Source of the DNA: an uncultured Candidatus Saccharibacteria bacterium
GTDB lineage: Bacteria > Patescibacteriota > Saccharimonadia > Saccharimonadales > Saccharimonadaceae
NCBI GenBank assembly: GCA_934717805.1
Contig: CAKUZG010000001.1
Span: forward strand, 2,806-66,805
Reading direction: 5' to 3'
Length of the DNA stretch: 64,000 nucleotides
The translations under genes and the position numbers were made by a program. The notes under the pieces are model-generated. The model was given only the letters and a program-made list of their open reading frames with translations. It was not told the origin of the DNA and made no database searches. Shown one piece after another: positions 58,525 through 63,477 of the stretch (positions are counted from its first letter, which is position 1; each line of letters opens with the position of its first letter).

Positions 58525-60218
58525 TGAAAAAACAAAAGATCGATATCGAAATCCCACTTGGAAAGCGAACTTTAAAGTATCGCTTTTTCGAGATTTTACC
58601 AGCATTTTTAAGTTTTGGCGCAATTATTTTAATGTTCATACTTTCGTTCTTTTCACCTTTTTTGGCCTCAGTTTATCTTTTAACGATTATTACAACTCTT
58701 CTTATTAAAGCGATTGGAATTGCTTATCGAATGATAACAGGGCATATACAGATTGAAAAAGCTCAAAAAGTTAATTGGAATAAGCGACTTTCTGAACTAG
58801 AAAATCCTAAAAAAGCGCTTGAGAAGATAAAAAATCAGGAAAAAAGTAAGGAATACGATTTTAAACAGCATGTTCAAAATTTGCATGATATTATAGATAG
58901 ACCAGAAGCTTTTCCAGATCCTTTCTCGGTAAAAAATGCCGTGATTATTGCCGCTTATAACGAACCTTATGAAGTGATTCAACCAACAATTAAATCTGTT
59001 TTAGCTTCAAATTATGATGCTAAAAATCTTTTAATTTTCTTGGCCTATGAGGAACGCGGCGGTGAAGGTATTGAAAAAACTGCAATTCGGCTCAAAAAAG
59101 AGTTTTCGAAAAGTTTTGGCGCTTTCGAAATTGTAAAACACCCAAAAAATCTACCAAATGAAGTTGTTGGAAAAGGTGGAAATATCACTTTTGCTGGCCG
59201 AGCATTGCAAAAATATTGTGAAGATAATAAAATTCCTTTCGAAAATGTACTAGTTACAACTTTAGATAGCGATAACAAACCTCATAAAGAATATTTTGCT
59301 GCTGCAACCTATGAATTTGTTGTTCATGAAGATCGCAAAAAGTTATCATATCAGCCAGTTTCGTTATTTTTGAATAATATTTGGGATGTTCCAGCGCCAA
59401 TGCGCGTGGTTGCAACTGGTAATTCATTTTGGAATATTGTTTCAACGATGCGGCCGCACCTTTTGCGAAATTTCGCTTCACACTCTCAACCGTTAGATGC
59501 TTTGGTTGAAATGGATTTTTGGTCAACTCGCACAATTGTTGAAGATGGACATCAATTCTGGCGCAGTTATTTCCACTTTAATGGTGATTATTATGTTGTG
59601 CCGATTCGCGTGCCAATCTATCAAGATGCGGTTTTGAGCGAAACTTTACTAAAAACACTTAAAGCTCAATTTATTCAACTTCGTCGTTGGATGTATGGCG
59701 CAAGTGATATTCCTTACGTTGCGAATTTATATTTTTCAAAAAATCGAAATGTTCCACTCATTGATGGCCTAATGAAATTAATCCGATTAATTGATGGTCA
59801 CGTAACAGCTGTGTTTCAATCACCAATGGCAGCTTTTGGCGGTTGGGTTCCGTTGATTGTTTATGCGGCATCATCTCGCAGTGTGATTGTTCACCAATTA
59901 CCGAATGTTATCAGTACACTTCAACAAATTGCAACAATTGGTATTTTTATCACAATTTTAATTAGCTTAAAGATGCTACCACCACGTCCAGAACGATATA
60001 AAAAACGTCGTTCTTTCTGGATGGTTGCGCAGTGGATCTATATGCCTGTAACTTCAATCTGTTATAATGCGGCAGCTGCAGCGTATTCACAAACCCGATT
60101 AGCACTTGGTAAATATCTTGATAAATTTGATGTTACCGAGAAGGGGCGAATTGAAGATGTTGAACGCGCCAAGGCGGAAAAAGCTAAAAAGCGAGCATTG
60201 AAAAAGCAAAAAAAATAA
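58524..60218 (+). CDS. membrane-embedded family-2 glycosyltransferase (processive, cellulose/chitin-synthase-like)
   Basis: IIAAYNEP, TTLDSDN (DxD) and QLRRW (QxxRW) motifs, flanked by TM helices. Confidence 0.8.
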   Translation: MKKQKIDIEIPLGKRTLKYRFFEILPAFLSFGAIILMFILSFFSPFLASVYLLTIITTLLIKAIGIAYRMITGHIQIEKAQKVNWNKRLSELENPKKALEKIKNQEKSKEYDFKQHVQNLHDIIDRPEAFPDPFSVKNAVIIAAYNEPYEVIQPTIKSVLASNYDAKNLLIFLAYEERGGEGIEKTAIRLKKEFSKSFGAFEIVKHPKNLPNEVVGKGGNITFAGRALQKYCEDNKIPFENVLVTTLDSDNKPHKEYFAAATYEFVVHEDRKKLSYQPVSLFLNNIWDVPAPMRVVATGNSFWNIVSTMRPHLLRNFASHSQPLDALVEMDFWSTRTIVEDGHQFWRSYFHFNGDYYVVPIRVPIYQDAVLSETLLKTLKAQFIQLRRWMYGASDIPYVANLYFSKNRNVPLIDGLMKLIRLIDGHVTAVFQSPMAAFGGWVPLIVYAASSRSVIVHQLPNVISTLQQIATIGIFITILISLKMLPPRPERYKKRRSFWMVAQWIYMPVTSICYNAAAAAYSQTRLALGKYLDKFDVTEKGRIEDVERAKAEKAKKRALKKQKK

Positions 60219-60243
60219 GCACTCTGAAAAGGGTGTTTTATTT

Positions 60244-60455
60244 TTGACTTTGGAATTTAAATTTATAAAATTTAAAAGCGGCCATTTTGACCGCCTAACG
60301 TAGGGACATTTGTAAGATTTTATTAAACCTTACCAAAAAATGCGTCGTTGTTTGGGTAACGAAAAGAAGAGGTAGAGAACCTAACAGATGAATTTCCGAT
60401 TTTTTACGCCCAAACCTGGTTGAACTTTTTCCGCAGTTCAACCTCGTTTTTTTAT
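60244..60455 (+). ncRNA. candidate small RNA unit 1 (promoter to terminator, about 175 nt)
   Basis: TTGACT (60244-60249), 16-nt spacer, TAAAAT (60266-60271). Internal helices include GTTTGGG/CCCAAAC. Strong terminator GGTTGAAC-N10-GTTCAACC (60418-60443) plus a T-run. Only 11-codon ORFs inside. Confidence 0.4.
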
Positions 60456-60756
60456 TTTAATGCTTTTTATGTAAAAATTCAAGTGTAACCACAATGACAC
60501 TCACTTTTTAAAGATTAAAATTTTGTTCGCTTTTGGTAAAAAATACATTTTTATAATTAAAACATTTCACGCGAAAGTCAAATAAAAGGAGGCGAACAAA
60601 CTTAAAGCAAATATATCACCAGATAAATAAAAATTTTCAAAAGTTAAAAACTATCTTGTGGAAAAGATTTTAGAAAATGTGCAAAACTAAAAACACTACA
60701 ACGCTATATATGGGGAAGAGAAAAATAACAGAAGCTATAAATCTCTTTGTATTTTT

Positions 60757-60950
60757 TTGCAAAAAAGTGAGCTTTTTGATATAATTAAAGTGTCTCAAAA
60801 ATTAAGTATTAAAAGCATTTCGGAAAGTGCATTTTTTTCGCATAGTTAAAGCCCTTGAAGTAGGGCGCCTTAGCGAGAAAAATTTATTTTAGGGTTTGAC
60901 CCGAAATGCGTAAGAATTTTTGAGACACTCGTTCGGGTGTCCTATTTTTA
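60757..60950 (+). ncRNA. candidate rod-like structured RNA, or structured 5' leader of the methyltransferase operon
   Basis: TTGCAA (60757-60762), 17-nt spacer, TATAAT (60780-60785). Nested helices pair 60790-60803 with 60915-60928 (14 bp), 60815-60823 with 60901-60909 (9 bp), 60832-60841 with 60873-60882 (10 bp), and 60851-60854 with 60863-60866. GACAC (60924-60928) can instead pair with GTGTC (60937-60941) before a T-run. Confidence 0.55.
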
Positions 60951-60992
60951 TTTCTTGCGCATTTTTATCTTTTCGGAAAGAAAGGATTTTTC

Positions 60993-62117
60993 GTGGCGAA
61001 TAAAAATTTACATAACGCCAAAGAATCAAAAAACGATGAATTTTACACACAACTTGAAGATATCGAAAAGGAGCTTTCGCACTACCGCCACCATTTTGAA
61101 GGTAAGGTAATTTTTTGCAACTGTGACGACCCTTATGAGAGTAACTTTTTCAAGTATTTTGTGCTAAATTTTAACACTTTAAAACTCAAAAAACTAATTG
61201 CCACCAGCTATATTGCTTCGCCCGTAGCTTTCAAAGAATTGCCGGCTAAAAAGGGAAATTCATCTTTTGAAGATTTACTCAAGCCTTATAAAATCGAAAT
61301 TGATGAAGTCTATGACCAAAATGGCGATGGTGCGATTAACTTACAAGATGTGAAAGAGATTTTAGAAAAAGCCGAAAAGGGTGGCAAAATGACAAGGCTA
61401 ACTGGTGATGGTGATTTTCGAAGTAGCGAGAGCAAAGAGTTGCTCAAGCAGGCCGATATTGTGGTGACCAACCCGCCGTTTTCGCTGTTTCGTGAATATG
61501 TGGCGCAATTGATTGAATTTAATAAAAAGTTTATTATTTTGGGGAATAATAACGCGATAACTTATAAAGAGATTTTTCCATTAATTAAAAATGGTAAAAT
61601 GTGGCTTGGTTATAGCGCAAATAAAACGATGACTTTTCGTTTGAGCAATCACTACAAACGCTGGAATTATATTGACGAAAATGGTAATAAATATGGCAAT
61701 GTGCCAGCAATTACTTGGTATACAAATTTAGATATTAAAAAACGCCACGAAGAACTGATTTTGGTAAAGAAATATAATCCACTTGATTACCCAAAATATG
61801 ATAATTACGACGCGATTGAAGTTTCGAAAGTGAAAGATATCCCTAAAGATTATGACGGCGTGATGGGTGTGCCAATAACTTTTTTCGATAAGTTCAATCC
61901 TGATCAATTTGAGGTTGTAGGACAAGGACAGGGAAATCTTTTTAGACAAATTTCAGATAAGGGACTTAGGGCTTCGTTTGTTGATAGCTATTATAAATTT
62001 GGTGGAAAAGGAGCTATAAAAGAAAATCACCCAGTTTTAGGATATTATAACAATAATGGTAAGCCTATTATTCCATATATGAGAATTTTAATCAAAAACA
62101 AGAAAGTAGAAAGGTAA
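60993..62117 (+). CDS. N6-adenine DNA methyltransferase, EcoRI-methylase-like family
   Basis: N-terminal SKNDEFYTQ...NCDDP...SNFFKYF and catalytic VTNPPF motif. GTG start after AAAGG. Family assignment is from memory of M.EcoRI-like sequences. Confidence 0.8.
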   Translation: MANKNLHNAKESKNDEFYTQLEDIEKELSHYRHHFEGKVIFCNCDDPYESNFFKYFVLNFNTLKLKKLIATSYIASPVAFKELPAKKGNSSFEDLLKPYKIEIDEVYDQNGDGAINLQDVKEILEKAEKGGKMTRLTGDGDFRSSESKELLKQADIVVTNPPFSLFREYVAQLIEFNKKFIILGNNNAITYKEIFPLIKNGKMWLGYSANKTMTFRLSNHYKRWNYIDENGNKYGNVPAITWYTNLDIKKRHEELILVKKYNPLDYPKYDNYDAIEVSKVKDIPKDYDGVMGVPITFFDKFNPDQFEVVGQGQGNLFRQISDKGLRASFVDSYYKFGGKGAIKENHPVLGYYNNNGKPIIPYMRILIKNKKVER

Positions 62118-62121
62118 AGCG

Positions 62122-63210
62122 ATGAAAATTGAGCTACACAAAATTAAAATAAAAGAGCTGTTTGCTGGTTTCGAAAATGATGAAGAAGCTGGTGTGGTGG
62201 GCTTTGATGGCAAGTTGAATATTCGCCCACCGTATCAGCGAGAGTTTGTTTATAAAGATGATCAACAGCGAGAAGTGATTCGCACTATTCGAAAAGGTTT
62301 TCCGCTCAATATTATGTATTGGTCAAAGAACAGTGATGGCACTTTTGAGCTTTTGGATGGGCAACAGCGCACGATGTCGATTTGTAAATATTTGAATGGT
62401 GATTTTAGTGTTGATGGTGCTTATTTTAATAATTTAACGCTTGAAGAACAAAAGCAAATTGAAGAATACGGGTTGATGATTTATTTTTGCGAAGGTGAAA
62501 CGCGCGAAAAACTAGATTGGTTCAAAATTGTGAACATTGCGGGCGAAGAACTAACGCCACAAGAGTTGAGAAATTCAGTTTATACGGGAAGTTGGTTGGT
62601 TGACGCTAAGCGATATTTTAGTAAAAGTGGTTGTCCTGCACAAGATGGTTATAATAATTATTTGAACAAGAGTTATCTTCGCCAAGAGGTTTTGGAAACT
62701 GTTTTGAAGTGGATTTCTGGCGGAAATATCGAGAACTATATGGGAATCCACCAGCATGACGCAAACGCGAAAGAGCTTTGGCGATATTTTGAAGATGTTA
62801 TGGAATGGGTACAGGCTGTTTTTCCAAATTATCGCAAAGAAATGAAAGGTTTGCCGTGGGGTGAATTTTATAACGAATTCAAAGATCAAGGTTTCGAAAA
62901 GATTGGTGAAGAAAATGAACGGCGGGTTTCGGAACTCTATAAAGATAATGAAGTTACCAAGAAAAGCGGGATTTATCAATATATTCTAACGGATAACGAG
63001 AAATATTTGAGCTTGCGAGCTTTTGATGATGATATTAAAAGTCAAGTTTATGAACAGCAAAAGGGAATTTGCCCAATTTGTCATAAGCACTACGCAATTG
63101 AAGAAATGGAAGCTGATCATATCAACCCATGGAGTAAAGGTGGAAAAACGGTGGCCGAAAACTGCCAAATGCTTTGCAAAAAAGATAATCGCGAGAAGAG
63201 TGATAAGTAA
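62122..63210 (+). CDS. DUF262 (ParB/Srx-like, GmrSD N-terminal type) domain fused to a C-terminal HNH nuclease
   Basis: PPYQREFVY and LLDGQQR motifs (DUF262). C-terminal CPIC...ADHINPWSKGG...NCQMLCKKDN (zinc-finger HNH). Starts 4 nt after the MTase stop. Confidence 0.8.
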   Translation: MKIELHKIKIKELFAGFENDEEAGVVGFDGKLNIRPPYQREFVYKDDQQREVIRTIRKGFPLNIMYWSKNSDGTFELLDGQQRTMSICKYLNGDFSVDGAYFNNLTLEEQKQIEEYGLMIYFCEGETREKLDWFKIVNIAGEELTPQELRNSVYTGSWLVDAKRYFSKSGCPAQDGYNNYLNKSYLRQEVLETVLKWISGGNIENYMGIHQHDANAKELWRYFEDVMEWVQAVFPNYRKEMKGLPWGEFYNEFKDQGFEKIGEENERRVSELYKDNEVTKKSGIYQYILTDNEKYLSLRAFDDDIKSQVYEQQKGICPICHKHYAIEEMEADHINPWSKGGKTVAENCQMLCKKDNREKSDK

Positions 63211-63226
63211 TTTTTATAAAACTAAA

Positions 63227-63253
63227 ATACCGCATAATAAGTGCGGTATTTTA
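63227..63253 (+). terminator. rho-independent terminator
   Basis: ATACCGCA-loop-TGCGGTAT followed by TTTT. Confidence 0.8.
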
Positions 63254-63311
63254 TAAGATGATTATAAAACAACAATATTACACATAACTAAAGGTGTAAA
63301 TGATGTAAAAG

Positions 63312-63388
63312 TGGTGGGCGATAGAGGACTCGAACCTCTGACTTTCACAACGTCAATGTGACGCTCTAGCCAACTGAGCTAATCGCCC
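63312..63388 (-). tRNA. tRNA-Val (anticodon GAC), CCA encoded
   Basis: Reverse complement reads GGGCGAT...ATCGCCC-A-CCA. Anticodon loop TTGACGT, T-loop GGTTCGAGTCC. Confidence 0.9.
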
Positions 63389-63477
63389 GTGGTTTTATTT
63401 TAGCAAAACTTGCAAGAAAAGTCTAGTGGTGATAAAATAAAAGGTAGTTAAAAATATTATTTTCGAAAGGAATCTAA

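Follow-up and report, generated by a model that had tools for sequence, protein, structure and literature searches.

The 64,000-nucleotide stretch of DNA analyzed here (the window), from contig CAKUZG010000001.1 of an uncultured Candidatus Saccharibacteria bacterium, carries at positions 60993-63210 a module of two genes, one for a DNA methyltransferase and the other for a nuclease, which is a member of a catalogued family of Type II-like restriction-modification (R-M) systems for which no biochemical study was found. The first gene (60993..62117, plus strand, GTG start) encodes a 374-residue EcoRI-family (gamma-class) N6-adenine methylase, and the second (62122..63210, plus strand, ATG start) encodes a 362-residue restriction-type nuclease with a DUF262 (ParB/Srx-like) domain, a helical domain and an HNH domain; both assignments were made with Pfam and PADLOC profiles. 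Between the methylase stop codon (TAA at 62115-62117) and the nuclease ATG lies a spacer that reads directly from the sequence as four nucleotides (62118..62121, plus strand), and the final codons of the methylase gene contain the ribosome-binding site of the nuclease (AGAAAGG), an arrangement suggestive of translational coupling. An initial annotation, made from the sequence alone, had placed two open reading frames (ORFs) of 374 and 362 codons at these positions, four nucleotides apart, and all of this was confirmed, as was every methylase and nuclease motif that it quoted, each of which was located in the translations. Its domain calls, namely an EcoRI-type gamma-class methylase that forms N6-methyladenine (m6A) and a DUF262 protein in which a zinc-finger HNH replaces DUF1524, are correct by Pfam, by conservation, by structural modelling and by Foldseek, and the Pfam comparison that it proposed identified the DUF262, HNH and EcoRI_methylase profiles with scores far beyond chance.

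The methylase matches PF13651 (EcoRI_methylase) from end to end (E = 2.7e-140, 468 bits compared to a cut-off of 26.4, profile positions 1-345 of 345) and the PADLOC model MTase_II (PDLC03297) at full length (E = 6.9e-124); a sequence search of PDB structures with this protein returned no match. The motifs SKNDEFYTQ (residues 12-20, 61026-61052), NCDDP (residues 43-47, 61119-61133) and NPPF (motif IV of the catalytic (N/D)PP(F/Y) type, residues 160-163, 61470-61481) are evident in the plus-strand sequence, and the DEFYTQ (residues 15-20), NCDDP and NPPF blocks are the best conserved among 83 methylases of such modules. Indel-rich, variable blocks of the module-linked methylases correspond to residues 81-140, 201-240 and 321-360. 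A non-specific methylase resembling Hia5 was considered and rejected, Hia5 and Hin1523 being Dam-related and outside the EcoRI family.

Several features of the methylases stand apart from these assignments. The methylase of the window contains a calcium-loop motif like those of EF-hands and dockerins, DQNGDGAINLQD (61314-61349, residues 108-119), within a variable insertion; its Pfam EF-hand matches are under threshold (E about 0.002), and the pattern D-x-N/D-G-D-G is present in 15 of the 83 module-linked methylases, from diverse taxa. The last 60 or so residues exist in at least two versions across the family. Among the loci compared (labelled L001, L002 and so on, of which L001 and L002 belong to relatives syntenic with the window), L003 (5635-6004) and L006 (2388-2757) retain, between an intact methylase and the nuclease, part of the C-terminus of another EcoRI-family methylase, which gene calling gave as pieces of 60 and 59 residues, and this remnant resembles the scar of a swap of the methylase C-terminal region. 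The possibility that L003-L006 carry a broken methylase next to an intact nuclease was rejected: the appearance results from gene-calling differences on identical DNA and from the leftover second C-terminus, and the N-terminal and catalytic regions of these methylases are intact.

The nuclease has three parts. The first (about residues 1-155) is a ParB/Srx-like DUF262 domain of the type that binds nucleoside triphosphates (NTP), identified by PF03235 (GmrSD_N/DUF262, E = 4.9e-18, 66.4 bits compared to a cut-off of 33.2, residues 34-154, nucleotides 62221-62583) and by an AlphaFold2 model in which residues 1-140 form an alpha/beta fold. The second, delimited by the same model, is an all-helical middle domain (about residues 146-300, with nucleotides 62590-63021 running from residue 157). 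The third is a zinc-finger HNH domain (residues 317-362, nucleotides 63070-63207) identified by PF01844 (E = 2.3e-11, 44.1 bits compared to a cut-off of 21.4), with C317/C320, D332-H333, N347, C352 and N356 as its characteristic residues, and this C-terminus also matches PF14279 (HNH_5). The Pfam scan of the nuclease reported no DUF1524 match, and because the C-terminus is HNH instead, the protein was not filed in the GmrSD family. DUF262 motif I is Q39-R40 (within PPYQREFVY, residues 36-44), motif II is D79-G80-Q81-Q82-R83 (within LLDGQQR, residues 77-83) and motif III is F134...N138; the HNH motifs are CPIC (residues 317-320), DHINPW (residues 332-337) and ENCQMLCKKDN (residues 346-356). In 45 homologues with 35-54% sequence identity, all three DUF262 motifs are invariant or at least 90% conserved (motif II is invariant at D79, G80 and R83 and at least 90% conserved at Q81 and Q82), and the QELRN motif (residues 147-151) and C317, H333, N347 and C352 of the HNH domain are likewise invariant or nearly so. 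Retention of these motifs down to 35% identity indicates purifying selection on the nucleotide pocket as well as on the nuclease site.

The AlphaFold2 model of the nuclease, built with 42 homologues, has a mean predicted local distance difference test score (pLDDT) of 88.7 and a predicted template modelling score (pTM) of 0.78, and its C-terminus forms a beta-beta-alpha unit (strands 329-333 and 348-352, helix 353-359). Foldseek comparison of this model with the PDB gave BrxU, a Type IV enzyme of the GmrSD family, as the best full-length match (E = 1.7e-4), ParB/Noc CTPase domains and sulfiredoxin as further matches to the N-terminal domain, and the HNH domains of the Gme HNH nickase, McrA and Cas9 as matches to the C-terminus (4h9d and 6ghc at probability 1.00); structures of Type II restriction enzymes were not among the matches. 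A sequence search of the PDB with the nuclease matched only generic HNH domains at E of 1 or less. Among PADLOC models, REase_II (PDLC03418) matches residues 1-362 with its positions 1-372 of 372 (E = 3.3e-133), Menshen NsnA matches residues 29-240 (E = 3.5e-26), and PD-T4-2_A (E = 3.6e-10) and mREase_IV (E = 2e-4) match weakly. The helical middle domain is likely to be a DNA-binding module by analogy with GmrSD, SspE and NsnA, in which a helical DNA-binding domain follows a DUF262 domain with the three motifs described (PMC12065111), and the extent of the NsnA match would fit this assignment.

Relatives of the nuclease are numerous: clustering at 90% identity leaves at least 8,000 of them, none with a more specific name than "DUF262 domain-containing protein", and 6,175 representative clusters reach an E-value of 0.001 or lower. 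When one genome per species was scanned, at least 600 matches were obtained, and the linkage of the two genes was counted in the best 80 loci, in which the nuclease is 56-63% identical to that of the window. The nuclease is accompanied on its own strand by an EcoRI-family methylase in 79 of the 80, nearly always immediately upstream (it is downstream in one, and an insertion of 0.7-3.7 kb separates the genes in four). Across 89 loci, the genes overlap in 47 (by four nucleotides in 30) and are separated by 30 nucleotides or fewer in 30 more, for a total of 77 of 89. The tight pairing that the initial annotation reported at one locus, and for which it proposed a neighbourhood survey, is thus a property of the whole family. 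The two functions are also found in one natural polypeptide (P0149, a 688-residue representative protein with the order EcoRI_methylase, GmrSD_N, HNH), and the pairwise identities of methylases and nucleases co-vary (r = 0.56, Mantel p about 0.001). In a separate 515-residue protein (P0259), the C-terminus of the methylase is fused to DUF262.

It is highly improbable that the nuclease, like GmrSD and BrxU, attacks foreign hypermodified DNA while the methylase is a co-travelling but mechanistically independent partner, for example of an orphan or anti-restriction type. Such a role would be in keeping with BrxU as the closest full-length structural match, with the weak matches to mREase_IV and PD-T4-2_A, and with the modification dependence of every characterized DUF262 nuclease (PMC10952713), but two genes with independent functions would not have remained neighbours in 79 of 80 loci across domains of life, nor would they overlap by four nucleotides, co-vary and become fused, and the full-length match to the Type II endonuclease model (E = 3e-133) contrasts with that to mREase_IV (E = 2e-4).

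The hosts of the best 80 loci include Saccharibacteria, Gracilibacteria and other Patescibacteria, DPANN archaea, Methanobacterium, Bacteroidales, Treponema, Rickettsiales, Pelagibacteraceae, Cyanobacteria, Chloroflexi and more. Annotated plasmids of Macrococcoides, Aeromonas, Gordonia and Enterococcus, as well as the Flavobacterium phage laban6-1, also have a methylase gene followed by the nuclease gene; on plasmids, the methylase is the only conserved neighbour of the nuclease. Cultured carriers of the module include Macrococcoides canis Epi0082, Gordonia sp. KTR9, Riemerella columbina DSM 16469 and Flavobacterium aestuarii. The cassette family is patchy and highly mobile, and on plasmids it adjoins toxin-antitoxin and resistance genes. 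Patchy spread, plasmid neighbours of this kind and the allele swaps described below are typical of R-M cassettes. Particular resistance genes were observed at three loci: optrA is inserted between methylase and nuclease on the Enterococcus dispar plasmid pK205-4b-C (L009), mef(F)/msr(G) adjoin the cassette in L007, and erm(A) is nearby in L011.

The same mobility could be ascribed to a selfish or homing element whose HNH nuclease cuts empty sites or rival alleles and so spreads the cassette, with the methylase protecting occupied genomes and phage defence a secondary effect. The retention of 56-63% identity across bacterial and archaeal phyla among the best 80 loci, carriage by small plasmids, resistance plasmids and phage, exchange of cassette alleles at one chromosomal site between close relatives, and the frequency of HNH domains in homing endonucleases would all accord with this account. 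It is nevertheless very unlikely as an alternative, being an evolutionary gloss on behaviour that ordinary R-M systems can and usually do show, with no mechanism of its own, and the cassette occupies many unrelated genomic contexts instead of one homing site.

The methylase of the window has 45.9% sequence identity over residues 2-374 to the genuine M.EcoRI of small E. coli plasmids (L013), which is encoded beside a "type-2 restriction enzyme EcoRI". Over conserved columns, M.EcoRI has a mean identity of 0.52 to 80 module-linked methylases, which average 0.55 to one another; the sequence closest to it, at 0.63, is a module methylase, and in a neighbour-joining tree it falls among them. One methylase family is therefore served by two unrelated nucleases, the PD-(D/E)XK enzyme R.EcoRI and the DUF262-HNH enzyme. 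Since near-full-length homologues of the nuclease are found in 43 records of the PLSDB plasmid database and those of the methylase in 64, DUF262-HNH may be a commoner partner of these methylases than R.EcoRI. The nesting of M.EcoRI within the module-linked methylases suggests that the textbook EcoRI pairing may be a minority arrangement in its own methylase family, and it makes a GAATTC-like target a reasonable guess: the methylase probably recognizes GAATTC, with the second A as the predicted site of methylation, or a related site with an AATT core.

With the methylase, the nuclease and their linkage considered together, the module is best interpreted as a modification-blocked, probably NTP-gated, Type II-like R-M system, a reading to which a probability of about 0.6 may be attached. 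In such a system, the M.EcoRI-related methylase would place N6-methyl groups on adenines of a short target so that the host chromosome is marked as self, and the nuclease would cut invading DNA that lacks the mark. The helical middle domain and the ParB/Srx-like DUF262 domain are predicted to bind DNA and NTP, and binding or hydrolysis of NTP would license cleavage by the C-terminal HNH domain, as in BrxU, GmrSD and SspE, with m6A presumably blocking the reaction rather than triggering it. The order of the genes and their coupling would ensure that protection precedes attack: with the methylase gene first and translationally coupled to the nuclease gene, the nuclease should never be made without its antidote. 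In Saccharibacteria, a leader of the terminator/antiterminator type may also throttle the operon. The R-M part of this interpretation is supported by linkage, coupling, fusion, co-variation, mobility and the PADLOC assignment, and NTP gating by the conserved NTP pocket and the precedent of BrxU and SspE. Also in its favour are the conserved HNH residues, the resemblance of the N-terminal domain to BrxU/ParB and of the HNH domain to Gme-HNH/McrA, and the nesting among module-linked methylases of M.EcoRI, which has an ordinary restriction enzyme as its partner. The initial annotation had offered three options: an R-M system of Type II-like character whose restriction subunit is a ParB-NTPase-HNH protein, a methylase that protects self DNA from its partner, and a methylase that marks DNA for the nuclease. 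The first fits best.

Several observations weigh against this interpretation. The characterized DUF262 nucleases (GmrSD, BrxU and SspE) all require DNA modification to act (PMC10952713, PMC12065111, PMC12707154), and the PADLOC label that both proteins receive is a family name, not a tested function. Palindrome statistics for the window, 589 kb of host flanks and the modules gave no specific signal of avoidance, GAATTC included (observed/expected ratio (O/E) 0.77, rank 22 of 64). In a metagenome-assembled genome of Moraniibacteriota (L078, 1230-2321), the sole methylase-less case among the best 80 loci, the nuclease is intact with all its motifs and there is no EcoRI-family methylase on the 6.8-kb contig. 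The length of the nuclease is very uniform (mode 360 residues), in contrast to the hypervariable, indel-rich blocks of the methylase, and in L002, where the proteins that flank the cassette are 93-99% identical to those of the window, the methylase is only 48% and the nuclease 76% identical. The idea that the nuclease has to recognize precisely the site of its methylase sits uneasily with this disparity.

Two of these observations, the intact orphan nuclease and the greater variability of the methylase, fit slightly better with a logic like that of the Ssp system, the main rival, in which the m6A made by the methylase is needed to activate or position the nuclease, which patrols from methylated self DNA and nicks or cleaves unmarked invaders. 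A nuclease without its methylase would then be inactive and not toxic, so that the orphan gene would be tolerable. The DUF262 and helical-domain architecture is common to both, and among characterized DUF262 nucleases SspE alone is linked genetically to a modification module of its host, whose mark it requires, the phosphorothioates of host DNA stimulating the DUF262 NTPase of SspE (PMC10952713, PMC13251355). Gene linkage, methylase-first order and coupling, however, are exactly what a toxic nuclease needs and would not be required by this logic, and the C-terminal domain is a classical zinc-finger HNH rather than the DUF1524 of SspE; the explanation is judged unlikely.

The initial annotation had also raised the question of a link between the target of the module and the hyper-abundant hexamer TTCGAA. 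The abundance itself is evident: TTCGAA occurs 192 times in window positions 1-64000, compared to 21.6 expected from base composition (about 9-fold). Elsewhere the enrichment is seen only in the close Saccharibacteria relatives L001-L005; most other genomes that carry the module lack it, with a pooled O/E of 0.99. The hyper-abundance thus belongs to this Saccharibacteria lineage and not to most module hosts, which makes a link to the target unlikely, and TTCGAA was rejected as the target of the module. The lower density of TTCGAA that had been noted within the module did not hold up in comparison with the rest of the window, with 5 occurrences compared to 6.7 expected (Poisson P = 0.34). The tetramer TCGA is about 2-fold over-represented in the window.

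The neighbours of the module in the window and in L001 and L002 are a glycosyltransferase gene, tRNA genes and thrS, and it occupies an identical site in these two relatives. A convergent tRNA-Val(GAC) gene (63312-63388, minus strand) has its 3' end facing the 3' end of the nuclease gene at a distance of about 100 nucleotides, which bears out the proximity to a tRNA-Val 3' end noted in the initial annotation. An island-type insertion at this tRNA gene is not supported: no integrase was called among the genes that flank the module in L001 and L002, no att-like repeat of the tRNA-Val end was found within 60150-63450, the GC content of the module is 0.362 compared to 0.361 for the window, and the site is the same in the relatives. 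No sspABCD or dndA-E genes lie beside the module in the window, L001, L002 or the plasmid loci, and no genes of the NsnB/NsnC type flank it in the window. When the cassettes of L001 (4881-7089) and L002 (5054-7101) were compared with window positions 60993-63210, the more distant L001, with flanking proteins 76-93% identical to those of the window, proved to have a methylase 86% and a nuclease 94% identical. This reversal of identities between L002 and L001 points to replacement of the cassette allele by recombination at a fixed locus. Allele replacement by recombination is common at defence loci.

Downstream of the nuclease gene, the terminator scan found a palindromic hairpin with a 12-bp stem and A- and T-rich flanks, TAAAATACCGCATAATAAGTGCGGTATTTTA (63223..63253), which was called on the minus strand and probably is a two-way terminator that ends the operon; its role on the plus strand is suggested by its palindromic symmetry. 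Upstream, between the glycosyltransferase gene and the operon promoter, lie about 540 nucleotides without a convincing ORF (60219-60756), with terminator-like hairpins at 60217-60238, 60276-60296 (minus strand) and 60418-60443; this stretch is about 84-89% conserved with L001 and L002.

The operon in the window is preceded by a predicted promoter (60757..60785, plus strand), TTGCAA and TATAAT separated by 17 nucleotides with a TG extension, which matches 10 of 12 positions in a consensus scan and of which both hexamers are kept in L001 and L002. Between this site and the methylase gene is a structured 5' leader of about 200 nucleotides (60787..60992, plus strand), identified by folding, covariation and a covariance model, with a minimum free energy of -61.5 kcal/mol (z = -4.15 compared to shuffled sequence). 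A perfect 15-nucleotide inverted repeat forms a long-range helix (arms 60789-60803 and 60915-60929), the 3' arm of which extends into the 5' half of a terminator-like hairpin (60924-60941) that is followed by a U-rich run, and a Shine-Dalgarno-like AAAGGA immediately precedes the methylase GTG. The same topology recurs with three different arm sequences (in the window and L001, in L002, and in L003); the long-range helix has 14-16 bp and is perfect in each version, the competing folds differ by 0-4 kcal/mol, and the RNAalifold consensus includes 13 pairs with compensatory changes. In the relatives, the promoter-like site and leader are at L001 4674-4883, L002 4847-5056 and L003 4398-4581. The covariance model placed the leader only upstream of the methylase in four Saccharibacteria loci, and outside these loci it gave two chance-level matches (E 0.4-0.5); the leader is therefore not shared by the family at large, and its presence in L003 and L005, in an unrelated genomic context, indicates that within Saccharibacteria it travels with the cassette. 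In an Rfam search, the leader reached no gathering threshold, and the matches with E below 1 were only at chance level. The leader looks like a transcription-attenuation (terminator/antiterminator) switch of the operon, which, with only three independent versions, is a lead for further study.

The catalogue status of the pair is mixed. The initial annotation had considered that it might already be catalogued as a standard R-M type with a known specificity; the first part is correct, inasmuch as MTase_II and REase_II of PADLOC-DB (2023) match the two proteins end to end and so already place the pair in Type II, and for the second part no known specificity was found. The PADLOC models presumably derive from REBASE entries, and the PADLOC papers do not reveal whether PDLC03418 was built on a tested enzyme. 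The literature search found no paper that characterizes a methylase-linked DUF262-HNH enzyme, its biochemistry or its recognition specificity. A 2008 classification of Type II enzymes by fold lists no ParB or DUF262 enzyme (PMC2441816); reviews of DUF262 proteins in defence name only GmrSD, BrxU, SspE, PD-T4-2, Menshen and Dazbog (PMC10952713, PMC12065111); and ParB-HNH fusions are described as "novel", and left uncharacterized, in a survey of the ParB-CTPase fold from December 2025 (PMC12704722).

If the modification-blocked R-M interpretation is true, an ordinary-looking Type II restriction enzyme has acquired a nucleotide switch of the ParB type, and the enzyme, blocked and not triggered by modification, has a polarity opposite to that of every DUF262 nuclease studied so far. 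A bolder composite, which is possible but doubtful, would make the nuclease the first modification-blocked or self-mark-licensed member of the GmrSD/ParB-fold superfamily, an NTP-switched HNH enzyme that reads m6A at a GAATTC-like site as the functional counterpart of the unrelated R.EcoRI, possibly the commoner partner of the M.EcoRI family, and expressed in Saccharibacteria from an operon under a previously undescribed leader RNA. The module of the window is an ordinary member of its family; the family deserves an experiment. Because it is so abundant, one biochemical study would annotate thousands of genes for "DUF262 domain-containing protein", and the family could yield a new NTP-controlled restriction enzyme. 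Knowledge of the target of the module and its methylation requirement would aid the genetics of Saccharibacteria and other Patescibacteria.

Among known systems, Menshen NsnA, PD-T4-2 and Dazbog have in common with the nuclease a DUF262 domain followed by a helical domain, without DUF1524, but they have the nuclease or effector on a different protein, and a linked methylase is not part of their definition. The HNH Type II enzymes (KpnI, Hpy99I, PacI, NlaIII and SphI) resemble it in having a beta-beta-alpha-metal HNH domain with one or more cysteine-rich zinc sites (PMC4081073), a protective methylase as partner and a small nuclease of a single polypeptide, but their classification papers mention no ParB or DUF262 domain (PMC2441816, PMC4081073), so that a Type II enzyme gated by NTP would be unusual. 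In the SspABCD-SspE system, a DUF262 nuclease is likewise tied to a DNA-modification function of the host and to an epigenetic mark that distinguishes self from non-self (PMC10952713, PMC13251355), but the mark is a phosphorothioate made by four proteins, whereas that of the module is m6A made by a single methylase, and the nuclease domain of SspE is DUF1524, not HNH. In GmrSD and BrxU, as in the nuclease of the module, an N-terminal DUF262 domain with the motifs QR, DGQQR and F...N precedes a helical domain and a nuclease of the His-Me-finger type; these enzymes differ in that the C-terminus in the module is a zinc-finger HNH (PF01844) instead of DUF1524, in length (362 residues compared to about 580), in acting alone on modified DNA when the nuclease of the module is linked to a methylase in 79 of the 80 best loci, and probably in having the opposite polarity toward modification. 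The EcoRI R-M system (GAATTC) is alike in its methylase, which belongs to the same PF13651 family over its full length, and in being a two-gene cassette of Type II style on mobile DNA; it differs in its PD-(D/E)XK nuclease R.EcoRI, to which the DUF262 and HNH domains are unrelated, in its gene order, which is nuclease-methylase in EcoRI and methylase-nuclease in the module, and in the size of its methylase, M.EcoRI having 326 residues whereas the methylase of the window has 374 with extra insertions.

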